Part shown: in pieces, positions 2,013 to 57,032 of the stretch
How positions within the stretch are numbered: position 1 is the first letter of the stretch
Layout: every line of letters starts with the position of its first letter
Assembly (NCBI GenBank): GCA_041629335.1
Contig: JBFKNN010000002.1
Span: forward strand, 1-59,325
Origin: Burkholderiales bacterium
Lineage (GTDB): Bacteria; Pseudomonadota; Gammaproteobacteria; Burkholderiales; SG8-41
Direction: 5' to 3'
DNA: 59,325 bases
Notes under the pieces: model-generated
Told to the model about the DNA's origin: nothing
What the model saw: only the letters and a program-made list of their open reading frames with translations
Databases searched by the model: none
Made by a program: the position numbers and the translations under genes

Positions 2013-3005
2013 ATGGACAACGTCAAACCGGCTGCCGTTTCGCACGAGGTCATCGCCAAGGCGCGCGAGGTGCTGGAGATCGAGGCCAAGGCGATATCCG
2101 ACCTCATCGCAAGACTCGACGACGGCTTTACGCGCGCGATCGAGCTGATCCTCAACCGCCGCGGTCGCGTGGTGGTGAGCGGGATCGGCAAGTCGGGGCA
2201 CGTGGCGCGGAAGATCGCGTCGACGTTCGCCAGCACCGGCACGCCCGCTTATTTCGTTCATCCGGCGGAAGCGAGCCACGGCGACTTGGGAATGGTGACA
2301 CGCGACGACGTTTTCATCGCCCTGTCGAATTCCGGGGAAAGCGCCGAGCTGCTGGCAATCGTGCCGGTGCTGAAGCGCCAGGGCGCGAAGCTGATCGCGA
2401 TGACCGGCAACGCAAGATCGAGCCTGGCGACCGAAGCCGACGTGCACCTCTACGCGGGCGCCGCCAAGGAAGCCTGCCCGCTCAACCTCGCGCCGACCGC
2501 CAGCACCACCGCCGCCCTCGCGCTCGGCGACGCGCTGGCGATTTCCCTGATGCAGGCGAAGGGTTTCACGGTCGACGAGTTCGCGCTGTCGCATCCCGGC
2601 GGCACGCTCGGCCGCAAGCTGCTCACCCACGTGCGCGACGTCATGCGCACCGGGCCGAACGCGCCGCGCATCGCGCACACCGCGACGATGATGGACGCGA
2701 TGCTGGAAATGTCCCGGGGACGCATGGGAATGACCGCGATCCTCGACGACCAGGGCCGGGTGATCGGCATCTATACGGACGGCGATCTGCGCCGTACACT
2801 GGAGAAGGGCGCCGATCTGCGCGCGACGCCGGTGAGCGAGGTGATGAGCCGCGGCCCGCGCACCATCGCGCCGGACCGGCTCGCGGCCGAGGCGGTCGAA
2901 ATCATGGAGCGCAACAAGGTGAACCAGCTGCTGGTGGTCGACCATGATCAAAAGCTCGTCGGCGCGCTCAACATGCACGATCTGTTCAGGGGCAAGGTGA
3001 TTTGA
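2013..3005 (+). CDS. kdsD: Arabinose-5-phosphate isomerase (SIS domain plus two CBS domains)
   Basis: MDNVKPAAVSHEVIAKAREVLEIEAKAI..., SIS motif VVVSGIGKSGHVARKIASTFASTGTPA, C-terminal CBS pair. The start is taken at the internal ATG 2013 of ORF 1593..3005. Synteny with kdsC-lptCAB. Confidence 0.9.
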   Translation: MDNVKPAAVSHEVIAKAREVLEIEAKAISDLIARLDDGFTRAIELILNRRGRVVVSGIGKSGHVARKIASTFASTGTPAYFVHPAEASHGDLGMVTRDDVFIALSNSGESAELLAIVPVLKRQGAKLIAMTGNARSSLATEADVHLYAGAAKEACPLNLAPTASTTAALALGDALAISLMQAKGFTVDEFALSHPGGTLGRKLLTHVRDVMRTGPNAPRIAHTATMMDAMLEMSRGRMGMTAILDDQGRVIGIYTDGDLRRTLEKGADLRATPVSEVMSRGPRTIAPDRLAAEAVEIMERNKVNQLLVVDHDQKLVGALNMHDLFRGKVI

Positions 3006-3048
3006 CCGCGCCCGCCGCCGCCAAGGCACGAAACTACAAGCCGCGGCG

Positions 3049-3609
3049 GTGGCGCCCGATTCGCAATATCAGGCAGCACGACTGATGCAAGACGTCTACG
3101 AGAAAGCCCAGCGATTGCGCCTGGCCGTGTTCGATGTTGACGGCGTGCTGACCGACGGCACGCTGTACTACACCGACAGCGGCGAGGAAATGAAAGCTTT
3201 CAACGTGCGCGACGGGCACGGCATGAAGATGCTGCAGGCGAGCGGGGTGCGGCTCGCCATCATCACCAGCCGCACGTCCCGCTGCGTCGAGCTGCGCGCA
3301 CAGAATCTCGGCATCGACCTGCTGTTCCAGGGCGTCTCCGACAAGCTTGCCGCCTTTGAGCAGCTGCTCGGGCGCGAGAAGCTCGACGCCGCCGGCGCCG
3401 CTTACATGGGCGACGACCTGATCGATCTGCCGGTCCTGCGCCGCTGCGGCCTTGCGGTCGCTGTCCCCGAGGCGCCGCAGGCAGTCCTGCAGCAGGCACA
3501 CTATGTGACGCAGGCGCCGGGCGGGCACGGCGCGGCGCGGGAGCTTTGCGAACTCATCATGCGCGCCCAGGGCACATTCGACGCGCAGCTTGCGGCGTAC
3601 CGGCGCTGA
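3049..3609 (+). CDS. kdsC: 3-deoxy-D-manno-octulosonate-8-phosphate phosphatase (HAD family)
   Basis: HAD motif I AVFDVDGVLTDG and GDDLIDLPVL. Position between kdsD and lptC. An alternative start at ATG 3085 is possible. Confidence 0.9.
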   Translation: MAPDSQYQAARLMQDVYEKAQRLRLAVFDVDGVLTDGTLYYTDSGEEMKAFNVRDGHGMKMLQASGVRLAIITSRTSRCVELRAQNLGIDLLFQGVSDKLAAFEQLLGREKLDAAGAAYMGDDLIDLPVLRRCGLAVAVPEAPQAVLQQAHYVTQAPGGHGAARELCELIMRAQGTFDAQLAAYRR

Positions 3610-45540: not shown

Positions 45541-46605
45541 TTAGCCGAGCGGCGCGATCTTCAGCTCGGCAGCGAGTTTCGCAAGCGCGTCCGCCAGCGC
45601 CGGCGGCAGCGGAATGCCGTTCTTCAGCCGGTCGGCGCGCGCCCTGTGGCTGCCCTCCCCCGGCAGGCGGATCGCATCCACGCCTGGCAGGCGCTTGCCG
45701 CCGCGGATGTCGCGGATCAGCGCGTCGACGCTTTGCTTGAATTCCGCGACCGGCTGGAACGCCGCGATATTGATCGCGACAATGACGTGCCCGGTGTTGG
45801 TCGGCGTCGTGTCATCGGCGTTGAAATCGACCACGTCCCTGCCCATCGCCGCCCCGTTCAGCGTCCCGGCGAGCAGACCGAAGACCAGCGCCAGGCCGTA
45901 TCCCTTGTAGCCGCCGATCGGCAGCAGAAAGCCCTCGTTGGAACGCCGGGGATCGGTAAGTGGCCTGCCCTGGCGGTCGATCATCCAGCCTTCGGGCATC
46001 GTCTCGCCGCGCTGCGCCTTGGTCTTGACCTTGCCGTAGGCCGCAACCGTGGTCGCCATGTCGAGGATGATCGGCGGCTCGTCTCCGGCGGGCAACGCCA
46101 CCGCGATCGGATTGGTCGAGAGCAGCATGTCGATCCCGCCCCACGGCGGCAGGTGGTTGGCGTTGCCGACCGCCAGGTAGAGCCCGATCATGTCGTGCGC
46201 CAGCGGCATGCCGGCGTAGAGCGAGGCCGGGCCGGCGTGATTGCTCCACTTGACGCCGACCCACGCCACGCCCGCGGTCTTTGCCTTCTCGATCGCCTTT
46301 TCGGTGGCGAAGCGCATCACGACGTGGCCCATGCCGTTATCGCCGTCGACGAGCGCCATGCCGGCCGCTTCGCGCGCGACCTTGACCGTGGGCCGCACGT
46401 TGACCGCGCCGCCCTTGATGCGGCGGATATACTGCGGCAGGCGGAAAATGCCGTGGCCTTCCGAGCCCTGCACGTCGGCGCGGGTCATGAGCTCGGCGAT
46501 CACTTTCGCATCGGCGGCGGGCATGTCGACCGCTGCCATGGCGCGGGCGATGAACGCCTCCAGTTTCTGCGTCGATATGCGCAGCGGTATGGCGGTGTCA
46601 GCCAT
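45541..46605 (-). CDS. Ldh_2-family (malate/L-lactate/pyrroline-2-carboxylate reductase type) NAD(P)H oxidoreductase
   Basis: GSEGHGIFRLPQYIRRIKGG and IGGYKGYGLAL. ATG 46605 is preceded by GAGGAGAG. Confidence 0.88.
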   Translation of the reverse strand: MADTAIPLRISTQKLEAFIARAMAAVDMPAADAKVIAELMTRADVQGSEGHGIFRLPQYIRRIKGGAVNVRPTVKVAREAAGMALVDGDNGMGHVVMRFATEKAIEKAKTAGVAWVGVKWSNHAGPASLYAGMPLAHDMIGLYLAVGNANHLPPWGGIDMLLSTNPIAVALPAGDEPPIILDMATTVAAYGKVKTKAQRGETMPEGWMIDRQGRPLTDPRRSNEGFLLPIGGYKGYGLALVFGLLAGTLNGAAMGRDVVDFNADDTTPTNTGHVIVAINIAAFQPVAEFKQSVDALIRDIRGGKRLPGVDAIRLPGEGSHRARADRLKNGIPLPPALADALAKLAAELKIAPLG

Positions 46606-46613
46606 TTCTCTCC

Positions 46614-46662
46614 TCACTTGTCACTTCTCACTCGTCACTCGTCACTCGTCACGCGTCACTCG
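46614..46662. repeat. Seven tandem heptamers (TCACTTG TCACTTC TCACTCG x3 TCACGCG TCACTCG), the complement of the GTGACGA family
   Basis: Read directly. Lies between the stop of the Bug gene (46668) and the Shine-Dalgarno of the Ldh_2 gene. Confidence 0.9.
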
Positions 46663-46667
46663 GAATG

Positions 46668-47645
46668 CTAATCAATCCGCACATCGTTGTCCTTGATGAT
46701 CTTCTCCCAGCGCTTCATCTCGGACAGCACGTAGGCGTTGAACTCGGCGGGCGAAGCGCTCAGGCTGATCGGAATCGCGCGCTTGGCCAGCTGCCCGTCG
46801 GCCTCGAGCTCGTTCATGGCCGCGACGATCTCGGCGTGCAGCCTGGTGACGATCGGCTTGGGGGTACGCGCCGGCGCGAAAATTCCGTTCCAGTTGAGGC
46901 TGCCGATGCCGGGGTAGCCGGCTTCGGCCATTGTCGGCACGTCGGGCAGGTCGGCCAGCCGCTGGTCCGCAGTCACCGCGAACGCCTTGATCTGTCCGGC
47001 GCGCACCGCGCCGATGTTGGACGCGACATTCGACTCGGTGATGTGTATGTCCCCGCGAATGAGCGCGGGCAGTGTCTCGCCCGCCCCTTTCGACGGCAGA
47101 TGCACCATTTTCACGCCCGCCGCCGCAGTGAGCGCGAGCATGTCCAGGTGGGAATACGAGCCCAGCGGCGCCTGGTAGTTGAGCTGTCCCTGGCGCTGCC
47201 GGGCGTAATCGAGCGCCTCCTTGAGGGTCCTCGCCGGAAGCTTCGGGCTGCCGAGTATGAAATTGGGGATCGCCACCAGCTTGGTAACGCCGGTGAGATC
47301 CTTCACCGCGCTCACCTTCATCCGCTTCGCGAACAAAATCGGATTGATCGAGTTGGTGCTGATGTTCCCGACCAGCAGCGTATAGCCGTCGGGCTGAGCC
47401 TGCGCGACGATCTCGACGGCGATGTTGCCGGCGGCGCCGGAGCGGTTGTCGACCACGATCTGCTGGCCGAGGCGCTTTGTGAGCCGGGGCTCGAGCACGC
47501 GCGCGATGATGTCGGTGGCGCCGCCGGGCGCGAACGGGATCACCAGCCGGATCGGCCGGGCCGGGTAGGCTTGCGGCTGCGCGGCATGCGCGGCGGTGCT
47601 CGCGGCGAGCAGCGCGAATACGAGAAAGCGAGTCAGACGAAGCAT
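46668..47645 (-). CDS. Bug-family (TctC-like) substrate-binding protein
   Basis: Signal peptide MLRLTRFLVFALLAASTAAHA, then YPARPIRLVIPFAPGGATD. Start at the internal ATG 47645. Confidence 0.9.
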   Translation of the reverse strand: MLRLTRFLVFALLAASTAAHAAQPQAYPARPIRLVIPFAPGGATDIIARVLEPRLTKRLGQQIVVDNRSGAAGNIAVEIVAQAQPDGYTLLVGNISTNSINPILFAKRMKVSAVKDLTGVTKLVAIPNFILGSPKLPARTLKEALDYARQRQGQLNYQAPLGSYSHLDMLALTAAAGVKMVHLPSKGAGETLPALIRGDIHITESNVASNIGAVRAGQIKAFAVTADQRLADLPDVPTMAEAGYPGIGSLNWNGIFAPARTPKPIVTRLHAEIVAAMNELEADGQLAKRAIPISLSASPAEFNAYVLSEMKRWEKIIKDNDVRID

Positions 47646-47788
47646 GTTGTTATCCTCCCTGTGGTGTTTGAATGCCGGCCTGGCGCATCCGGCCAGCCGG
47701 TCATCTGACGTATTCGATGCTCCTGCTTGCCGGCACACGGGCTCGGAGCCCTCCAACACATTGACCAGGCGCCAGGCCCATCAGCGCG

Positions 47789-48199
47789 TCAGCTGCCGTG
47801 TTCCTCGAGCTCGACCAGCGCGCCGAGAAAGTCCTTCGGGTGCACGAACGCGATGCGTCCGCCGTGGACGTTGTGTTGCGGCTTGCCGCCACCCAGCACC
47901 CGGGCGCCCCTGCCGGCGATCGCTTCACCGGTCGCATCCACGCTGTCGACCGCCAGGCAGAAATGATGGATCCCGCCGCGGGGATTGCGCTCGAGGAATT
48001 TCGAGACCGGCGAATCGGGGCGCGATGGCTCCATCAGCTCGATCTTCGCGTTGCCGAGGTCAACATAGCCCAGGCGAACGCCCTGCTGCTCGTTCACCTT
48101 CACCTCGCCCAGCTCGAGGCCGTAGACGTCCTTCAGGCGCCTTGCAGCGGCATCCAGGCTCGGCACGACGATGGAAATGTGGCTCAATCCGGTGATCAT
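47789..48199 (-). CDS. VOC-superfamily protein, methylmalonyl-CoA epimerase-like
   Basis: LSHISIVVPSLDAA..., IELMEP, GGIHHFCLAVDSVDA. Confidence 0.85.
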   Translation of the reverse strand: MITGLSHISIVVPSLDAAARRLKDVYGLELGEVKVNEQQGVRLGYVDLGNAKIELMEPSRPDSPVSKFLERNPRGGIHHFCLAVDSVDATGEAIAGRGARVLGGGKPQHNVHGGRIAFVHPKDFLGALVELEEHGS

Positions 48200-48233
48200 G
48201 AGACTGCCTCGTCGGTTGGCGGCCGGTTGCGGG

Positions 48234-49208
48234 TCAGTCCAGCCGCACGTTGTTGTCCTTGACGATCTTCACCCAGCGGTTCATCTCGGCCTGCACGAAA
48301 GCGTTGAACTCGGCTGGCGACGCGCTCACCGCGAGCGGCACCAGGCGCTTCGCGTACGTTTCCTTGAGCTCCGGCTCGCCCAGGACCTCGACGATGGTCG
48401 CATGCAGTTTGCCGATGATGGCGCGCGGCGTCTTCGCGGGGGCGAACAGCCCGACCCAGTTGATGCTGCCCACGCCCTTCAACCCCACCTCGGCGAAAGT
48501 CGGCACAGCCGCCAGTTCCGGGATGCGGGCATCGGCGGCGACCGCGTGGGCCTTGAGCTGCCCCGAGCGGATCAGTCCGATCACGGAGGCGACGGTCGTG
48601 TTCGAGACGTGCGCCTCGCCGCGCAGGAGCGAGGGGATCGTCTCTCCCGCGCCTTTCGACGGCAGGTGCACCATGTTCACGCCCGTGGCCGCCAGCAGCG
48701 CAAGCATGTCGAGGTGCGGATGGCCGCCAAGCGGTGCCGTGTAGTTCAGCTGCCCCGGCCTCGCCTTCGCATAGGCGATCAACTCGTCGAACGTGTTCGG
48801 CGGCAGCTTGGCACTGGTGATCAACACGTGGGGAATGGCGGCGAGGAGCGAGATTCCGGTGAGCTCCTTCACCGCATCGACCTTGATGCGGCCCGCGTAC
48901 AGCACCGGCACGAGCGCGCTCGAGGTATTGTTGCCCACGAGCAGCGTGTGCCCGTCCGGCTGCGCGCGCGCCGCGATTTCGAGCGCGATGCCGCCGGAGG
49001 CGCCGGGCCGGTTGTCGACCACGACCTGCTGGCCGAGCTTCTCGGTCAGCTTGGGGCCGACCAGCCGGGCGACGATATCGTTGGCGCCGCCCGGCGGGAA
49101 CGGGACGAGAAACCGGATCGGCCGGTTAGGGTAGTTTTGCGCGGCCGACGGTGTCGCCGCCAGGCCGGCCAGGGCCGCGGCCAGAAGCGATACGGCTATT
49201 CCTTTCAT
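48234..49208 (-). CDS. Bug-family (TctC-like) substrate-binding protein
   Basis: Signal peptide, then NYPNRPIRFLVPFPPGGAND. Confidence 0.9.
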   Translation of the reverse strand: MKGIAVSLLAAALAGLAATPSAAQNYPNRPIRFLVPFPPGGANDIVARLVGPKLTEKLGQQVVVDNRPGASGGIALEIAARAQPDGHTLLVGNNTSSALVPVLYAGRIKVDAVKELTGISLLAAIPHVLITSAKLPPNTFDELIAYAKARPGQLNYTAPLGGHPHLDMLALLAATGVNMVHLPSKGAGETIPSLLRGEAHVSNTTVASVIGLIRSGQLKAHAVAADARIPELAAVPTFAEVGLKGVGSINWVGLFAPAKTPRAIIGKLHATIVEVLGEPELKETYAKRLVPLAVSASPAEFNAFVQAEMNRWVKIVKDNNVRLD

Positions 49209-49229
49209 GTGCTCCCCTTTGTGACCGGC

Positions 49230-50465
49230 TTACGCGACCCCGCCCGGGCGTGGCGCGACGGCCAGCGGAATCAGGCTGCGCGCGCCGAAGCGGCGCACTG
49301 CCTCGTCGCGGCTTTTCAGGCATGCCTCACGCAATTCGAGGTAGGCGCGTCCCGCGGCCGTCTCATGCCAGAACCACCGGTTCGCATCGAGCGCGGCGCC
49401 CGCGCCCGGCTGCGCCGTCACTGCTTCCAGATAATAAGCCTTTAGGTCCTGGGTGGCGAGGCGCAGCGCCAGCACCACCTCCAGTGCCTGGTTGTAGCTC
49501 GGCGTGGCGGGGTCGGCGATGAAATCGGTGATGAATTTTGCGGCCGCAGCGGGCGCAAGACCGCTCAGCGTGGCGGTCGTGCGCTCGCGCCGGTTGCGCG
49601 CCAGCTCGTACCAAGGCGCAAGCTCAGCCACTTCTTTCCCGACCGCCGCGGCGAGCCCGTCGCCGGCGACCGGGCGGCTGAAGCTCACCGGGCAGGCGAA
49701 CCCTTGCACCTCCTCGGGCGCAACGGCGGGCGCGTCTTCCGGATAGTCCTCGAGCACGGGACCGGCCGGCGCTTCGAGCAGTCTCAATGCCGCGAGCACG
49801 ACCCGCCGCTGGAAGGCAGCGTCGCCCGGAACGCCCAGCGGGCGTCCAAGTATGAAAGGCACCCACAAGGTGCGCGGCGGCATGATCGCTTCGCTGTGCT
49901 CGCGCACGAGCGAGATCTGTGTTGTCGCGATGCCCTCCTGCTCAAGCCACTTCGCCAGCGCACCCACGGTGCACGTGCAGCGTGGTCAGACCGGCGTCAG
50001 CAATACCGCATCGACCCTGTCGCGCTTGAGCATTCCGGCCATGCGGCGCGCGGTGGGCTCGAGGCCCGGCACGCGCGCGGCACCCATTACCGCATAGTGG
50101 AAATCCGCGAGCGAGCCCACCGCGCCCTCGGCCGCGAGCTCGCGCATGCGGTCGATGGGAAACACGACGTTGGCGTCCTGCTGGAATCCGGTGCGGTCGA
50201 AATTGGACGAGAGATGGCTCATCACGAGCTCCTCCGCGCGCGCGTCGCCCGGGATCACGCGATAGTCGTTCGCCGCCGCGCCGTCGGCGTAAGGCGGATC
50301 GCTTGCGCGGTGGATTCCCGCGGTAGTCACGAGCGCCACGCGCCGGCGGTTGAGCGGAAGCCCCGAGACCCAGGGCGAGCCCGTGAGATTGAAGCCCGGA
50401 ATTTCCTTCAACATGTCGAGCAGCAGCTCGCGCTCCCATTGGCCGAGATCGGCGAGACGCGCCAT
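49230..50465 (-). CDS. GrdB/PrdB-family (glycine/betaine/sarcosine/D-proline reductase protein B-like) protein with an in-frame TGA at 49986..49988. Either a candidate selenoprotein (411 aa if read through) or a disrupted gene.
   Basis: ORFs 49986..50465 and 49230..49967 share a frame and are separated only by TGA plus 6 sense codons. The junction reads LLTPV-TGA-PRCTC. See finding. Confidence 0.6.
49958..49981 (-). other. GC-rich imperfect hairpin starting 7 nt after the in-frame TGA (SECIS candidate)
   Basis: mRNA GCUGCACGUGCACCGUGGGUGCGC. Hand-folded either as GC(U)GCAC/GUGCGC with a bulged U, or as GUGCACC/GGUGCGC with a GUG loop. Not validated computationally. Confidence 0.3.
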
Positions 50466-50601
50466 GAAAGAACCTCCTCAGATTGTGGTCCGGCGCGCGG
50501 GCGCGCCGAGCGGCTTATCGCCGCAAATCTGCTCCATCCGCGCGGGCGCGACAAGAGCCCATCCCGGCATTGCTGCCATGCCGCCAGGCTATGCCCGGCA
50601 A

Positions 50602-51807
50602 TCAGATGACTTTCTGCGCGCGCAGTTCCGCAACGCGCCCGTCGGAGAGCTCCAGGTCCTCGCGCAGCACCTGCTCGGTGTGCTGGCCGAGCGTCGGTGG
50701 CGCGCGGCGCACCGCCGCCGGTGTCGCGCTGAAACGGAACGGAATGCCGACCATCTTCAGGTCGCCCGCCGTCGGGTGCTTGACGGTGCGCACCATCTCG
50801 CGCGCCGCGGTGTGCTCGGCGTTGAGCGCCTGCGCCACGCTGTTGATGCGCCCGCAAGGAATGCCGGCTGCGGTGAGCTTCGCGAGCCAGGCTTCGGCGC
50901 CCTGCTCCTTGAGCACGCCAGCAACCATGTCATCCAGCGCCTCACGGTTCGCGATACGGTTCGAGTTCTTGACGTAGCGCGGATCGGTCGCCCACTCGGG
51001 CCGGCCGAGCGCCGCCGCGAACTTGCCGAACTGCGCGTCGTTCCCGACGGAGACCGCGATCATGTCGTCCCGCGTCGGGTACGCGGTGTAGGGCACGATA
51101 TTGGGATGCCCGTTGCCGAAGCGCCGCGCGTCCTTGCCGGAGACGAGGTAGTTGGACGCGACGTTGGCGAGCATCGCCAGGCTCGAATCGAACAGCGACA
51201 CCTCGACATGCTGGCCGCGCCCGGTGCGGTGGCGCGCGTTCAATGCGGCGAGAATCGAATTGCACGCGAGCATGCCGGTGCAAATATCAACGATGGCGAC
51301 GCCGTACTTCATCGGCGTGCCATCGGCCTCGCCGCAGATGCTCATCAGCCCCGATTCGGCCTGCAGGATGAAGTCGTAGCCGGGAAGCTTCGCCTTGGGG
51401 CCGGTCGAGCCGTAACCGGTGATCGAGCAGCGGATGACGCGCGGCGCGTTGGTCTCGAGCCAATCGTTGCCGAAGCCCCATTTTTCGAGGGTGCCGACCT
51501 TGAAATTCTCGACCACCACGTCGCTCTTGCGGATGAGCTGCGCGAGAATCTCCTGGCCCGGCTTCGCCGCCATGTTGAGCGTGATCGAGCGCTTGTTGCG
51601 GTTCACCCCGAGGTAATAGGCCGATTCGCCGTTGGCGAACGGCGGCCCCCACGTGCGGGTATCGTCGCCGGTGCCCACCGGCTCGACCTTGACCACGTCC
51701 GCGCCCATGTCGCCCAGCATCATCGTGCATAGCGGGCCGGCGAGGATGCGCGTGAGATCGAGAACGCGTATGCCCTCAAGCGCGCCGTCGTTGCTGTCAG
51801 CGGCCAT
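50602..51807 (-). CDS. Family III (CaiB/BaiF) CoA-transferase
   Basis: GIRVLDLTRILAGPLCTMMLGDMGADVVKVE, a full-length pattern. Confidence 0.92.
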   Translation of the reverse strand: MAADSNDGALEGIRVLDLTRILAGPLCTMMLGDMGADVVKVEPVGTGDDTRTWGPPFANGESAYYLGVNRNKRSITLNMAAKPGQEILAQLIRKSDVVVENFKVGTLEKWGFGNDWLETNAPRVIRCSITGYGSTGPKAKLPGYDFILQAESGLMSICGEADGTPMKYGVAIVDICTGMLACNSILAALNARHRTGRGQHVEVSLFDSSLAMLANVASNYLVSGKDARRFGNGHPNIVPYTAYPTRDDMIAVSVGNDAQFGKFAAALGRPEWATDPRYVKNSNRIANREALDDMVAGVLKEQGAEAWLAKLTAAGIPCGRINSVAQALNAEHTAAREMVRTVKHPTAGDLKMVGIPFRFSATPAAVRRAPPTLGQHTEQVLREDLELSDGRVAELRAQKVI

Positions 51808-51849
51808 CCCGTCTCCTGAAGGAAAAGCTGTTTGCGGGTTCGGTACGAA

Positions 51850-52755
51850 TCAACGCTTGCGGCGCATCGACGGTGGCGCGTTGAGATCCCGCTCGCAGCC
51901 GTCGATATACCGCGCGAGCTCGCGCTTGTCGCGCAGGCGGAACTTCTGGAAGTTCGGCTTGCGCCCGGCGAGGAACGCGTCCATGCCCTCCTTCGCCTCC
52001 TCCGAGCCCCACACGTGCGCCAGCAGCTCCATGCCGTGCTGCCAAGACGAGTACAGGTTGTCGGACTCGAAGTTGAGCGACTTCTTGGTCATGCGGATGG
52101 TGAGTGCACTGTGGCCCTTCATGGTCTTGCACCACTTGAGCGTTTCCTTGAGCAGGTCTTCTTGCGGCACGCACTTGTTGATGAGCCCGACCTCGACCGC
52201 CTCCCGCGCGGTGAAGCGGCGCGCGCAGAAGATCATTTCGCGCGCCAGGCGCTCGCCGATGATGCGGGGAATGTACTGGGTCGCCCCCACGGTGGGACAC
52301 GCGCCGACTTTTGCGCCGGTCTGGCCCAGCACGGCATTCTCGGAAGCGATCACGAGATCGCACCACAGGGCGAGCTCGTGGCCGCCGCCCATGCACCAGC
52401 CGTTGACCATCGCGATCACCGGGATCGGCAGGCCGCGGATCGTCATCGCGAGACCCAGCATGCGGTCGTTCCACATGTAGGCATTGGTGAAATTGAGCCG
52501 CTTCATCGCGTAGAAGTCGCCGCCTGCGGAGAACGCCTTGTCGCCGGCGCCGGTCACCACCGCGCACACGATCGAGGGATCCTCGCGCGTGGACTTGAGC
52601 GCCTCGATGATCTGATCCAGCGTCTGCTCGCGAAACGCGTTGAGCACGCGCGGGCGGTTGATGGTCACCCACGCGACCTGGTCCTTCACCTCGTACAGGA
52701 TGTCGGAGTATTTCCGCTTTGTGGACTTCGTCGATTTTCTCTTGCTGGCAGGCAT
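51850..52755 (-). CDS. Crotonase-superfamily enoyl-CoA hydratase/isomerase-like enzyme
   Basis: VTINRPRVLNAF, AFSAGGDF, NGWCMGGGHELALWCD. Start is the internal ATG 52755 of ORF 51850..52917. Confidence 0.88.
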   Translation of the reverse strand: MPASKRKSTKSTKRKYSDILYEVKDQVAWVTINRPRVLNAFREQTLDQIIEALKSTREDPSIVCAVVTGAGDKAFSAGGDFYAMKRLNFTNAYMWNDRMLGLAMTIRGLPIPVIAMVNGWCMGGGHELALWCDLVIASENAVLGQTGAKVGACPTVGATQYIPRIIGERLAREMIFCARRFTAREAVEVGLINKCVPQEDLLKETLKWCKTMKGHSALTIRMTKKSLNFESDNLYSSWQHGMELLAHVWGSEEAKEGMDAFLAGRKPNFQKFRLRDKRELARYIDGCERDLNAPPSMRRKR

Positions 52756-52915: not shown

Positions 52916-53884
52916 ATGCGCCTCGTTCCAGCCCTGCAGGCCCTGCTGCTCGCGCTCGTCGCCGCCCACGGCGCCGCGGCCCAGTCCTATCCGGTGAAGC
53001 CGATCCGCATCATCGTGCCGTTTGCCGCGGGTGGCCCTACCGACACGCATTCGCGCTGGGCGGGGCAGCAGATCACTGCCGCACTCGGCCAGCAGGTGAT
53101 CGTCGACAACCGCGGCGGGGCGGGCGGGGTGATCGGCACTGAAGCCGCGGCCAAGGCCGCGCCCGACGGCTACACGCTGCTCGGGGGCAATCCGGGGCCG
53201 CTCACCATCGCGCCGAGCGTGCGCAAGCAGCTCAACTACGATCCGTCGAAGGACTTTGCGCCGATCACGTTGATCGCGCGCAGCGCAAGCTGCATGTGCG
53301 CGCACCCCAGCGTGCCGGTCAAGGGCCTGCGGGATTTCATCGCGCTGGCGAGGGCGAATCCGGACAAGATCAACTACGCGACACCCGGGATCGGCACCGT
53401 CGGCCACCTCGGCACCGAGCTCTTCTCCACAATGGCAGGAATCAAGATGAACATGGTGCCGTACAAGGGCGCGGCGCTCTATCTCATCGATCTGCTCGCC
53501 GGGAACATCGATTTTGCCTACGTGCAGATATTCCAGGCCACCCCGCACGTGCGCGCGGGCAAGCTGCGCGCCCTTGCGGTCACCGCGGCCGAGCGCTCGC
53601 CGCTGCTGCCGGAGATCGCGACCGCCGCCGAGCAGGGCGTCAAGGGATTTTCCAGCTACAACTGGAACGGCATCCTCGCGCCGGCCGGCACCCCGCCCGC
53701 GGTGATCGAGCGCCTGCACGCCGTGCTCGCCAAGCCGCTCACGGACCCGGCCGTGCGCAAGCAGCTCCAGGATGTCGGCTACGAGGTGGCGGGCGACGGC
53801 CCCGGTGAGTTCGCCACGTTCATGCGCGCCGAGACCGAAAAGTGGGCAGACGTGGCGAAGAAAGCCGGCATTCCTAAACAATGA
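52916..53884 (+). CDS. Bug-family (TctC-like) substrate-binding protein
   Basis: Signal peptide MRLVPALQALLLALVAAHGAAAQ, then SYPVKPIRIIVPFAAGGPTD. Confidence 0.9.
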   Translation: MRLVPALQALLLALVAAHGAAAQSYPVKPIRIIVPFAAGGPTDTHSRWAGQQITAALGQQVIVDNRGGAGGVIGTEAAAKAAPDGYTLLGGNPGPLTIAPSVRKQLNYDPSKDFAPITLIARSASCMCAHPSVPVKGLRDFIALARANPDKINYATPGIGTVGHLGTELFSTMAGIKMNMVPYKGAALYLIDLLAGNIDFAYVQIFQATPHVRAGKLRALAVTAAERSPLLPEIATAAEQGVKGFSSYNWNGILAPAGTPPAVIERLHAVLAKPLTDPAVRKQLQDVGYEVAGDGPGEFATFMRAETEKWADVAKKAGIPKQ

Positions 53885-53910: not shown

Positions 53911-54014
53911 GCTCGCCAATCGCTAATCGCCAATCGCTAATCGCCACTCGCTAATCGCCAATCGCCAATCGCTAATCGCTAATCGCTAATCGCTAATCGC
54001 CAATCGCTAATCAC
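53911..54014. repeat. Tandem array of about 15 heptamers (AATCGCY)n
   Basis: Counted by hand: 13 units matching AATCGCC, AATCGCT or ACTCGCT, plus degenerate end units. Intergenic, ending 17 nt before ATG 54031. Confidence 0.95.
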
Positions 54015-54030
54015 AGATTTGGAACCAAGA

Positions 54031-55200
54031 ATGCCAGAGCAAAAAGACCCCGCCTACTTCATGTACTTTCCCGGCAACTACCGCTGGTCGGCCGCGTTCA
54101 TCAACATGCTGGGCAGCGTCGCTTATGGCGGCGCCGAGATCGGCGAGCTGCACAAGATCGGCCGCATGCTGAAGGGCAAGGCGGCCAACGACGACGCGGC
54201 CTGGTTCGACGCGTGCGCCAAAGTCGCCGACGGCGTGCGCGCCTATGCCGAGAAGTGGGACAAGGCGGGGCACCGCTACGCGGCCGCGCACGCCTATCTG
54301 CGCGCGTGCAATTACTACCAGATGGCCGAGCGTTTCCGCACTCCGAAGGATGAGACCGGGCTCGACATCTACCGGCGGGGCGTGAAGTGCTTCCATCGCC
54401 ACGCCGCTCTCACCGACTTGAGGATCGAAGTCGTCGAAGTGCCGTACGAGAACGGCAGTCTCCCGGGCTACTTCGTGCACGCTCAGAACGCGAAGTCGAA
54501 GCGCGCACCCTGCGTGGTGTTCTTCGACGGGCTCGACGTCACCAAGGAGATCCAGTTCGTCCGGGGCGTCTCCGATCTGATCAAACGCGGTATCTCGTGC
54601 CTGGTGATGGACGGCCCGGGCACCGGCGAGGCGATCCGCTTCCGCGGCTACGTTCTGCGGCACGATTACGAGGCCGCCGGCAGCGCCTGCGTCGACTTCC
54701 TCGAGAAACGCAGCGACGTCGACCCGAAGAAGATCGGGGTCGTCGCGATCAGCCTGGGCGGCTACTACGCCCCTCGCTGCGCGGCGATGGAGCCGCGCTT
54801 CGCGGCGTGCATCGCGTGGGGCGCGCAGTGGGACTACTACGCCACGTGGAAGAAGCGCATCGATGCTTCCTTCAAGACCTCCCTTTCCGTCCCGGGCCAC
54901 CACATCATGTGGATTCTGGGCGTCGATTCGCTGGACGCGGCATTGAAGGCGCTCGAGCCGTACAAGCTCGACGGCGTGATGCAGAAGATGCGCTGCCCGT
55001 TCCTGCTCGTGCACGGCGCCGACGATGAGCAGATACCCTTGGCCGACGCGCAGAAGCAGTTCGACGCGTGCGGCTCCAAGGACAAGACCTTCCGCGTCTA
55101 CACCGCCGAGGAAGGCGGGGCCCAGCACTGCCAGCGCGATTATCTGACGCTGGTCGTCGCCGACATGTGGAACTGGTTCGACGAGAAGCTCAACCGCTGA
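54031..55200 (+). CDS. Alpha/beta-fold hydrolase
   Basis: Nucleophile elbow VVAISLGGYYA and LLVHGADDEQIP. Start at ATG 54031 rather than the TTG 54019 used by the track. Confidence 0.8.
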   Translation: MPEQKDPAYFMYFPGNYRWSAAFINMLGSVAYGGAEIGELHKIGRMLKGKAANDDAAWFDACAKVADGVRAYAEKWDKAGHRYAAAHAYLRACNYYQMAERFRTPKDETGLDIYRRGVKCFHRHAALTDLRIEVVEVPYENGSLPGYFVHAQNAKSKRAPCVVFFDGLDVTKEIQFVRGVSDLIKRGISCLVMDGPGTGEAIRFRGYVLRHDYEAAGSACVDFLEKRSDVDPKKIGVVAISLGGYYAPRCAAMEPRFAACIAWGAQWDYYATWKKRIDASFKTSLSVPGHHIMWILGVDSLDAALKALEPYKLDGVMQKMRCPFLLVHGADDEQIPLADAQKQFDACGSKDKTFRVYTAEEGGAQHCQRDYLTLVVADMWNWFDEKLNR

Positions 55201-55254: not shown

Positions 55255-55280
55255 TCATCACTCATCACTCATCACTCACC
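55255..55280. repeat. Heptamer array (TCATCAC)x3 plus a partial unit, directly upstream of the CocE/NonD gene start
   Basis: Read directly. Ends 6 nt before ATG 55287, and no purine-rich Shine-Dalgarno is visible. Confidence 0.85.
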
Positions 55281-55286
55281 TCCGCT

Positions 55287-57032
55287 ATGAGCACCTACAA
55301 GAGCGAAGTTCGCGACGGCATGCGCATCGACTGGGACGTGCCGGTCACCATGGACGACGGCCTGGTGCTCCGCGCCGACGTATTCCGCCCGATCACCCCC
55401 GGGCGCTACCCGGCGCTGGTGAGTTACGGCCCGTATGGCAAGGGGCTCGCGTTCCAGGAGGGCTACAAGACCGCCTGGGACATCATGGCGCGCGACAACC
55501 CCGACGCCGTCAGCGGCACCACCAACCAGTACGCCAACTGGGAAGTGGCCGATCCGGAGAAGTGGGTGCCCGACGGTTACGCCTGCGTGCGCGTGGATTC
55601 GCGCGGCGCGGGGCGCTCTCCAGGCTACCTCAATCACAACAACGCGCGCGAAAACCGCGACTTCGCCAACTGCATCGAGTGGGTCGCTAAGCAGTCGTGG
55701 TGCGACGGCAAGGTGGGGCTCAACGGGATCTCGTACTACGCGAGCAGCCAGTGGCGCGCCGCGGCGCTCAATCCGCCGCATCTGGCCGCGATCTGTGTCT
55801 GGGAAGGGTGGGTGGATTATTACCGCGATTCGGTGCGCCACGGCGGCATCGCCTGCACCTTCCGCAAGAACTGGCAGGAGATGCAGGTGAAGACGGTGCA
55901 GCACGGCCGCGGCGAGCGCGGGCCGAAGAGCCGCGTTACCGGCGAGCTGGTATGCGGGCCGGAAACGCTGCCCGAAGAGGAGCTCGCGAAGAACCGCGCC
56001 GACATGTGGGTAGGCGTGCTCGAGCATCCGCTCGCCAACGACGACTACTATCGCCAGCGCACCGCCGATCTCTCGAAGATCACCGTGCCGCTGCTGTCGG
56101 CGGCCAACTGGGGCGGCCAGGGCCTGCATCCGCGCGGCAATTTCGAGGGGTTCGTGCGCGCGGCCTCGCGCGAGAAATGGCTGGAAGTGCACGGCGGCTC
56201 GCACTGGGCGCCGTTCTACACCGACTGGGGCGTCAGGCTCCAGAAACGCTTCTTCGACTACTTCCTCAAGGGCGAGCAGAACGGCTGGGACAAGCAGCCG
56301 CGCGTCACGCTCAAGGTGCGGCACCCGGGCGAGAAGTTCGTCGAGCGCCACGAGAACGAGTGGCCGCTCGCCCGCACGCAGTGGACACGCTACTACCTCG
56401 ACCCTCGCAGCAAGTCTCTGTCAGTGAAGCCGCCGGAGGCCGACGCGCCGGTGAGCTACGACGCGATGGGCGATGGCGTCACCTTCTCCACGCCGCCGCT
56501 CGAGCAGCCGACCGAGATCACCGGCCCCTCGGCACTGAAGCTCTTCCTTTCCTCCTCCACCGCCGACGCCGACATCTTCGCCGTGCTGCGGGTGTTCGAT
56601 CCGCAGGGCAAGGAGCTCGTGTTCCAGGGCGCGCTCGACCCGCACACCCCGATCGCACAGGGGTGGCTGCGCGCCTCGCACCGCAAGCTCGATCCGAAGC
56701 TCACCCTGCCGTACCGCCCGTATCACACGCACGACGAGAAGCAGCCGCTCAAACCCGGCGAGGTCTACGAACTCGACGTGGAGATCTGGCCGACCTGCAT
56801 CGTCGTGCCGGCGGGCTGGCGCATCGCGCTCACCATCCGCGGCAAGGACTACGAGTACGGGGGCGAGGCCGCGACGCTGTCGAACATGAAAAACCCGATG
56901 CGCGGCTGCGGGCCGTTCGTGCACGACGATCCCACCGACCGTCCGGTGGAGGTGTTCGGCGGCAAGGTGACGCTGCATTGCGGCGCGGGGCGGGAGGCGT
57001 TCTTGCTACTGCCGGTGATTCCGGGCAAGTGA
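55287..57032 (+). CDS. CocE/NonD-family (S15 X-Pro dipeptidyl-peptidase-like) hydrolase
   Basis: MSTYKSEVRDGMRIDWDVPVTMDDGLVLRADVFRP..., RVDSRGAGRSPG, GLNGISYYASSQW. Start is the internal ATG of ORF 55068..57032. Confidence 0.88.
   Translation: MSTYKSEVRDGMRIDWDVPVTMDDGLVLRADVFRPITPGRYPALVSYGPYGKGLAFQEGYKTAWDIMARDNPDAVSGTTNQYANWEVADPEKWVPDGYACVRVDSRGAGRSPGYLNHNNARENRDFANCIEWVAKQSWCDGKVGLNGISYYASSQWRAAALNPPHLAAICVWEGWVDYYRDSVRHGGIACTFRKNWQEMQVKTVQHGRGERGPKSRVTGELVCGPETLPEEELAKNRADMWVGVLEHPLANDDYYRQRTADLSKITVPLLSAANWGGQGLHPRGNFEGFVRAASREKWLEVHGGSHWAPFYTDWGVRLQKRFFDYFLKGEQNGWDKQPRVTLKVRHPGEKFVERHENEWPLARTQWTRYYLDPRSKSLSVKPPEADAPVSYDAMGDGVTFSTPPLEQPTEITGPSALKLFLSSSTADADIFAVLRVFDPQGKELVFQGALDPHTPIAQGWLRASHRKLDPKLTLPYRPYHTHDEKQPLKPGEVYELDVEIWPTCIVVPAGWRIALTIRGKDYEYGGEAATLSNMKNPMRGCGPFVHDDPTDRPVEVFGGKVTLHCGAGREAFLLLPVIPGK

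Follow-up and report, generated by a model that had tools for sequence, protein, structure and literature searches.

The 'proline reductase PrdB' UxxC family (pfam07355) has been catalogued since 2005 (PMC1088965; Zhang, Fomenko & Gladyshev 2005), and in the Sargasso Sea and Global Ocean Sampling data PrdB-like UxxC proteins form one of the most abundant selenoprotein families in oxic seawater (PMC1088965; PMC2398784, Zhang & Gladyshev 2008). Both papers are sequence catalogues: beyond the name they propose no function, and they describe neither the domain architecture of the family nor its gene context. Here we analyse a GrdB/PrdB-like gene of this kind in a stretch of 59,325 nt (hereafter the window) of contig JBFKNN010000002.1, which belongs to a metagenome-assembled genome (MAG) of a Burkholderiales bacterium (GCA_041629335.1; 3.1 Mb, 79% complete). 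The gene lies on the minus strand among genes of CoA-thioester metabolism (Table 1). It belongs to a known, functionally uncharacterised selenoprotein family, and its context is informative and had not been described before.

An earlier interpretation of the window, made from its letters alone (the sequence-only reading), had proposed a non-canonical role for the protein in an aerobic pathway for a betaine- or imino-acid-like carboxylate. Comparison with related genomes gave a different picture. An older compact cluster consists of genes for a MenB-like crotonase, a family III transferase resembling succinate-hydroxymethylglutarate CoA-transferase (SUGCT), an epimerase-like VOC protein and an Ldh_2 family dehydrogenase, with genes for a Bug receptor and an alpha/beta hydrolase transcribed divergently. 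Between the transferase and epimerase genes of the window, the selenoprotein gene and the gene of another receptor, BugB, form a two-gene module. The selenoprotein gene, with BugB, is an optional insertion in the operon, and two subclades of the gene have each entered at a different site. As an overall explanation we put forward an accessory selenoprotein reductase inserted into a dicarboxylate-type acyl-CoA operon, and give this reading about an even chance of being right.

Selenocysteine codon and selenocysteine machinery

The GrdB-like gene is a single frame of 411 codons; its sole TGA is codon 160, which stands in the motif PV-TGA-PRC. A homologue scan restricted to one genome per species confirmed at least 582 relatives, and 80 loci spanning Burkholderiales, Alphaproteobacteria, Dehalococcoidia and Desulfobacterota were retained for comparison (loci and genomes are numbered L and G below). 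The aligned codon was TGA in 80/80 of these loci, and eight full-length homologues with about 45% identity carried Cys at the aligned position (motif PVCPxC). A hairpin lies 14–31 nt past the U of the UGA. In a 30-sequence alignment, compensatory changes were found at four of six pairs; pair 16/30, for instance, was UA in 14 sequences, CG in 8, UG in 3, GC in 2 and AU in 2, and one compensatory change couples a Cys/Arg codon change with a silent third-base change in an Ala codon. The fold energy of the single window sequence was not better than that of shuffled sequences (z 0.77). Against four relatives, dN/dS was 0.08–0.19 on both sides of the TGA. The MAG contains selA (579 bits) and the N-terminus of selB (217 bits), which is cut by a contig end. 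The two genes lie together (G000:C63:13032-14980), with selA first and then selB, of which ~145 N-terminal residues are encoded before the contig ends.

Public gene calls break at the TGA in most relatives, and public gene callers divide the locus into a product of 159 and one of 245 residues. The majority of close database homologues are about 245 residues long and start just after the TGA codon; gene callers therefore split the family there. The conserved TGA, the Cys homologues, the covarying hairpin, the low dN/dS in both halves and the presence of selA and the start of selB together identify the gene, on sequence grounds, as a true selenoprotein gene. They also contradict the alternative that the TGA is a real stop and the locus a broken gene or two small genes. 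This alternative would agree with the split public gene calls; it would leave the retention of TGA over several phyla, the purifying selection on both halves and the conserved hairpin after the TGA unaccounted for, and we regard it as next to impossible.

Protein family and predicted structure

The encoded protein is a cytoplasmic selenoprotein of 411 residues with selenocysteine 160 (Sec160) and Cys163 in its PrdB-like domain. It passed the Pfam threshold for GRDB (PF07355; 47.6 bits vs. 22, residues 38–157). Residues 37–231 matched the PrdB model TIGR04483 with 91.9 bits, below the cut-off of 300, and the protein-B subfamily model TIGR01918 was matched with 59.5 bits (cut-off 65.45) at model positions ~221–420 only. 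The protein thus stays under the cut-offs and lacks the two-half architecture of glycine/betaine/sarcosine protein B (TIGR01918, TIGR01917, NF040795). Its sequence places it in a very large family of stand-alone 'PrdB-like' U-x-x-C proteins.

An AlphaFold2 model of the full protein was confident (predicted local distance difference test, pLDDT, 87; predicted template modelling score, pTM, 0.87) and suggests two domains: a PrdB-like alpha/beta domain and, C-terminal to it, a helical domain of about 170 residues that is specific to the family. No sequence relatives were found in the PDB at E values up to 1, and Foldseek returned no PDB match below 1e-3. VIA-align with residues 36–246 gave generic Rossmann/periplasmic-binding-like matches only (Z up to 9). 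The C-terminal helical domain folded alone with pLDDT 84; its best match among solved structures had Z 5.1, and an Atlas feature search with this domain returned unnamed clusters only, with scores <0.9. Structure prediction, proposed with the sequence-only reading as a check, thus yielded a confident two-domain model and no functional lead.

Six alphaproteobacterial loci (L051, L065, L066, L067, L087 and L088) have the selenoprotein gene twice in tandem, and both copies contain a TGA. The copies of a tandem fall into different clades of the tree, which may point to a heteromer. At eight other loci (L020, L022, L024, L025, L028, L038, L050 and L078) genes of betaproteobacterial type stand in MAG records labelled Enterobacteriaceae, Bordetella parapertussis, Streptomycetaceae or Nitrosopumilus, probably through mistakes in binning or naming.

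Gene neighbourhood

In the metagenomic relatives L097–L103, whose selenoproteins are 77–87% identical to that of the window, the gene is kept between the CoA-transferase and VOC genes. Gene order is identical to that of the window in L101–L103; L098–L100 have the same core with both Bug genes absent. In the closest relative (L097, selenoprotein 87% identical) BugB is present as two fragments, residues 24–47 and 262–324, at positions 2953–3284, and represents a decayed receptor gene in an otherwise intact operon. A second layout was found in six species-level genomes (L025, L027, L028, L030, L033 and L045), where the crotonase, transferase, VOC and Ldh_2 genes are followed by the selenoprotein gene. 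The selenoproteins at this operon end are only 55–61% identical to the window protein, which in the tree groups with L016–L018 at 100% support in the Shimodaira–Hasegawa approximate likelihood ratio test, apart from the operon-end clade. L016–L018 have a BugB orthologue directly downstream of the selenoprotein gene and no CoA genes; the BugB orthologues in this position in the sister clade (L016–L018 and G215) are 72–81% identical.

Seen from the operon, the selenoprotein gene is rarely linked to it. Of 400 genomes sampled from the order, 25 had crotonase orthologues (66–91% identity); they represent four families. Within the family of the window, seven of eight genomes have the compact crotonase-transferase-VOC-Ldh_2 operon without a selenoprotein gene in the fetched stretch, about 8–10 kb to either side. 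The gap between the transferase and VOC genes is 12–40 nt in six genomes (G200, G060, G393, G157, G111 and G242) and about 210 nt in G357. G321 is the only same-family genome with a selenoprotein gene nearby, 3 kb past Ldh_2, and the only one of the 25 with a linked copy; the selenoprotein gene does not accompany the orthologous operon everywhere. A second family carries crotonase-transferase-VOC alone. Among 26 genomes checked, selA was found in 24 and a member of the selenoprotein family in 18, usually on another contig.

The other accompanying genes differ in constancy. BugC orthologues (56–77% identity) stand beside the crotonase gene at nine loci (L027, L030, L045, L105, L106, L109, L117, L120 and L121), and orthologues of the alpha/beta hydrolase (76–87% identity) occupy the same position in related operons. 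BugA is present in L101–L103, L097, G357 and G321 and absent from most other operon copies. L098 and the majority of operon copies have no CocE/NonD hydrolase gene at this position. Its orthologues (64–74% identity) lie 3–6 kb from selenoprotein genes that are unlinked to the operon, in two further and otherwise different contexts (L036:7126-8862; L133 on G357:C19, 4136-5896). Since the MAG has only four CocE paralogues, this repeated proximity may be more than chance.

Outside the operon, a recurrent home of the selenoprotein gene was recognised. G111 (L129, contig C3) and G157 (L130, contig C35) carry an unlinked copy in a DUF302-TetR-CMD (AhpD-like)-selenoprotein cassette beside ispA-dxs. 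The cassette genes are present in a looser arrangement in G283 (L131, contig C14), and G357 has a CMD-selenoprotein pair. L129, L130, L131 and L016 share this home cassette beside xseB-ispA-dxs. A fusion of a pyridine-nucleotide-disulfide oxidoreductase with a VTT/DedA domain is encoded within a few kb of the cassette. The ispA-dxs site of the MAG (C17:5700-9900) is contiguous and has other genes and no cassette, which leaves the copy in the operon as the only one found.

No universally conserved neighbour was found among the 80 loci. Immediate neighbours on the same strand included Ldh_2 (only in this operon type), TetR regulators, AhpD-like CMD proteins, SDRs and many housekeeping genes. A general, family-wide tie of the selenoprotein to CoA-transferases, crotonases or Bug receptors was considered and rejected, the rates near the gene being those expected from the density of paralogues.

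Since operons of the same family exist without the gene, and since the window protein groups with L016–L018 and apart from the operon-end clade, we conclude that the gene was inserted into an older operon. Its entry on two occasions into one operon of about 6 kb, and its retention under purifying selection after loss of BugB, argue for a functional tie; the many operons without it make this tie accessory and not obligatory. Conservation of the neighbourhood, the lack of which would have counted against the sequence-only reading, was borne out in part. The context recurs in L097–L103 and in the second layout, and most orthologous operons lack the gene. The placement of the protein in a CoA-thioester operon accordingly holds as a recurrent context and fails as fixed membership of a pathway, seven of the eight same-family operons being without it.

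Classical reductase partners

GrdA (PF04723) and GrdE/PrdA-type (PF09338) genes gave no match in the 79%-complete MAG or in the related genomes G001–G004, which are three larger operon-carrying betaproteobacterial genomes and one alphaproteobacterial genome. The search is valid, because the positive control, a Desulfobacterales genome with a member of the selenoprotein family (G005), revealed a GrdA gene with TGA and a PF09338 gene, both unlinked to the family member. The earlier observation of a GrdB-like protein without classical partners, made on the window, thus extends to the MAG and four further genomes.

Core enzymes and substrate clues

The best NCBIfam models for the crotonase were MenB (242 and 238 bits) and BadI (214 bits), none of which reached its cut-off; among solved structures, MenB chains scored about 200–210 bits and carnitinyl-CoA dehydratase 110 bits. 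The transferase scored 388.8 bits on the succinate-glutarate CoA-transferase model NF052585 (cut-off 750) and 134.5 bits on the CaiB model NF002914 (cut-off 413), and its best solved relative was SUGCT (9br6, 348 bits). The VOC protein passed the methylmalonyl-CoA epimerase model TIGR03081 marginally (115.4 vs. 114.95 bits). For the Ldh_2 protein, the best NCBIfam match was a sulfolactate dehydrogenase, and solved relatives were Pyrococcus malate dehydrogenase (1v9n, 224 bits), sulfolactate dehydrogenase (2x06, 211 bits) and, with 128 bits, the Pip2C/Pyr2C reductase DpkA (1wtj); the comparison with this reductase used solved structures.

A transferase nearest SUGCT, a crotonase of MenB/BadI type, an epimerase-like VOC protein and an Ldh_2 protein of malate/sulfolactate type point to a dicarboxylate-type acid, away from carnitine, betaines and imino acids. 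The two substrate clues of the sequence-only reading consequently look weak. The pairing of a CaiB-like transferase with a crotonase had been taken for carnitine/betainyl-CoA chemistry; neither protein reaches the level of a CaiB or CaiD equivalog, the transferase is closer to the succinate-glutarate type, and the crotonase is MenB-like. The Ldh_2 gene had been read as a hint of imino acids, and its product is nearer to malate and sulfolactate dehydrogenases than to DpkA.

Proposed role of the selenoprotein

We propose that the core cluster would activate an imported dicarboxylate-type acid as its CoA thioester and process the product, and that the selenoprotein would be an accessory reductase co-expressed with the operon. 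Given the U-x-x-C motif and what is known of PrdB and GrdB, the selenolate of Sec160 may attack an electrophilic centre in a carboxylate brought in by BugB or in the corresponding CoA ester. Cys163 would then resolve the Sec160 adduct to a selenenylsulfide, which a general thiol system (thioredoxin, or an AhpD-like protein such as that of the home cassette) could re-reduce with no pyruvoyl or GrdA partner involved. The outcome might be an extra or modified substrate fed into the core pathway, or one cleared from it. A broader generalisation, which we offer as speculative and rather unlikely, is that stand-alone PrdB-like selenoproteins are unrecognised aerobic, partner-free enzymes for reductive cleavage of C–X bonds in Bug-captured carboxylates, and that Burkholderiales plug them into acyl-CoA operons and so widen the range of usable acids.

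Several results weigh against an accessory reductase tied to this operon. Across the family the neighbours of the gene are heterogeneous and often housekeeping (MurJ, DnaN, IMPDH, ispA-dxs, GlnD), so that a general redox role fits as well as a pathway role. Outside this operon type a CoA-transferase gene lies within 10 kb in about 6 of 74 loci, no more than expected; with about 97 Bug/TctC, 13 TctA and 15 family III CoA-transferase genes in the 3.1 Mb of the MAG, mere adjacency to such genes carries little weight. Two nearly complete, selA-positive genomes (G200 and G393, 98–99% complete) run the operon without any family member. All operon enzymes are under equivalog cut-offs except the marginal epimerase. 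Of the selenocysteine machinery, tRNA-Sec, a clear selD and the rest of selB were not found in the 79%-complete MAG.

The heterogeneity of the neighbours, together with the existence of the operon without the selenoprotein gene, would be expected if the protein were a TetR-controlled general selenol/thiol reductase working with an AhpD-like protein, and its presence in the operon neutral hitch-hiking under a borrowed promoter. The cassette beside ispA-dxs in G111 and G157, with the disulfide-oxidoreductase/VTT fusion nearby, its loose counterpart in G283, the CMD-selenoprotein pair of G357 and the TetR and CMD genes adjoining the selenoprotein gene at about 9 of 80 loci all speak for such a role. 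It accounts less well for the entry of two subclades at two different sites of the same small operon, for purifying selection on the gene within operons of lineages lacking BugB, and for a MAG that has lost the home cassette and in which the operon contains the sole copy found; we consider it unlikely, though a serious possibility. The protein could instead be an integral step for a betaine- or imino-acid-like carboxylate, carrying out reductive C–N cleavage in the manner of GrdH or PrdB, with either the free acid or the CoA ester as substrate. Its homology to PrdB, GrdH and GrdF, where Sec falls in the aligned region, the CoA-transferase gene directly adjacent in the clade of the window, and matches of the nearby hydrolases to families S9, S15 and S33, which bear proline-specific peptidase names, are compatible with this. 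These peptidase matches are weak and of a generic alpha/beta-hydrolase kind, the enzymes are nearer to dicarboxylate, MenB and malate/sulfolactate types than to CaiB, CaiD and DpkA, and most orthologous operons lack the gene, which makes an integral step quite improbable. Still more doubtful, in our view, is an organosulfur route, in which the operon would handle a sulfur-bearing C3–C5 acid and the selenoprotein would reductively cleave a disulfide or thioether before CoA activation. The Ldh_2 protein has its best NCBIfam match and its second-best PDB match in sulfolactate dehydrogenases, and a family III transferase accompanied by a methylmalonyl-CoA epimerase resembles the route via 3-sulfinopropionate in Variovorax and Advenella. 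The case is mostly one of resemblance, all matches are far under family cut-offs, and the annotated genes of the cluster include no thiol dioxygenase, desulfinase or sulfite-handling gene.

Our preferred explanation remains an accessory reductase that would be co-expressed with a dicarboxylate-type operon. A natural comparison for its function is offered by related genomes in which the operon includes the gene, lacks it, or has it at another site, and the BugB receptor and the TetR/AhpD-like home cassette are starting points for ligand and activity screens. The PrdB-like family is abundant in oxic waters and its genes are still split at the TGA by gene callers; a substrate, if found, would define the use of selenium in many aerobic bacteria.

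Organisation of the window

Open reading frames and scans with Pfam and NCBIfam models gave the seven tightly spaced minus-strand genes and three divergent plus-strand genes described by the sequence-only reading, and upheld each of its assignments, including the divergent Bug, alpha/beta-hydrolase and CocE genes. Its remark that the window has no TctA/TctB membrane components agrees, for TctA, with the wider MAG, which has 13 TctA genes and none of them on this contig.

Table 1. Coordinates of the operon, the selenocysteine codon and the divergent genes in the window
Feature	Position	Strand	Remarks
Ldh_2 family dehydrogenase	45541-46617	-	Last gene of core operon; Ldh_2 372.5 bits
BugA, TctC-family receptor	46668-47645	-	Variable operon member; TctC 187.1 bits
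VOC protein, methylmalonyl-CoA-epimerase-like	47789-48199	-	Core operon; TIGR03081 115.4 bits
BugB, TctC-family periplasmic receptor	48234-49208	-	Accompanies selenoprotein gene; TctC 204.3 bits
GrdB/PrdB-like predicted selenoprotein gene, 411 codons	49230-50465	-	GRDB PF07355 47.6 bits; one in-frame TGA
SECIS-like (selenocysteine insertion sequence-like) hairpin, 7-bp stem, GUG loop	49958-49974	-	Candidate from fold and covariation
TGA, predicted selenocysteine, codon 160, motif PV-U-PRC	49986-49988	-	Conserved TGA, Cys homologues
Family III CoA-transferase, SUGCT-like	50602-51807	-	CoA_transf_3 465.7 bits
MenB/BadI-like crotonase	51850-52755	-	First gene of core operon; ECH_1 220.8 bits
BugC, TctC receptor	52916-53884	+	Divergent, conserved alongside core operon; TctC 249.2 bits
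FrsA-like alpha/beta hydrolase	54019-55200	+	Weak Peptidase_S9, FrsA-like and Hydrolase_4 matches; conserved with BugC
CocE/NonD hydrolase	55284-57032	+	Outside conserved cluster; TIGR00976 257.8 bits

From the crotonase gene to the Ldh_2 gene, the spaces inside the seven-gene unit are 42, 136, 21, 34, 143 and 50 nt. A consensus scan found no terminator-like sites on the minus strand inside this unit; the promoter and terminator scan was otherwise uninformative. Tandem arrays of heptamers lie in three intergenic spaces of the cluster, with 7.6 copies of CTCGTCA at 46610-46662, 14.3 copies of TCGCTAA at 53913-54012 and 3.4 copies of TCATCAC at 55255-55278. The CTCGTCA array, between BugA and Ldh_2, lies at the edge of a variable gene. 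The crotonase begins with a lysine-rich N-terminal extension, MPASKRKSTKSTKRK (window 52650-52755); its ECH_1 match starts at residue 24, and orthologues align from about residue 5–16 on.

Comparison with known systems

A search of the literature gave no experimentally assigned function for the PrdB-like selenoprotein family and no described pathway that combines a SUGCT-like transferase, an epimerase, a MenB-like crotonase and an Ldh_2 enzyme. The operon shares with systems of SUGCT and methylmalonyl-CoA-epimerase-type VOC proteins a transferase nearest to SUGCT and a VOC protein that just passes the epimerase cut-off. It differs in the transferase score, about half of that model's cut-off, and in the addition of a MenB-like crotonase and an Ldh_2 enzyme.

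The D-proline reductase PrdB of Clostridium sticklandii type is similar to the window protein over residues 37–231, which cover model positions 26–219 of 238; codon 160 lies inside this alignment, and both proteins have the U-x-x-C redox pair. In contrast to PrdB, the window protein scores far below the cut-off, has an extra helical domain of about 170 residues and occurs in aerobic Burkholderiales, and no PrdA-type gene was found (PrdC was not included in the search). With respect to protein B (GrdB, GrdF, GrdH), the window protein corresponds to the Sec-bearing C-terminal half (model positions ~221–420), whereas the N-terminal half of GrdB is missing and no GrdA or GrdE was found. A further close system is the environmental PrdB UxxC family, with which the window protein shares the pfam07355 domain, a U-x-x-C motif with TGA-encoded Sec, rarer Cys homologues, and occurrence in aerobic bacteria without proline-reductase partners. 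The insertion into an acyl-CoA operon, the pairing with BugB and the TetR/AhpD-like home cassette are results of the present analysis that those catalogues do not contain.

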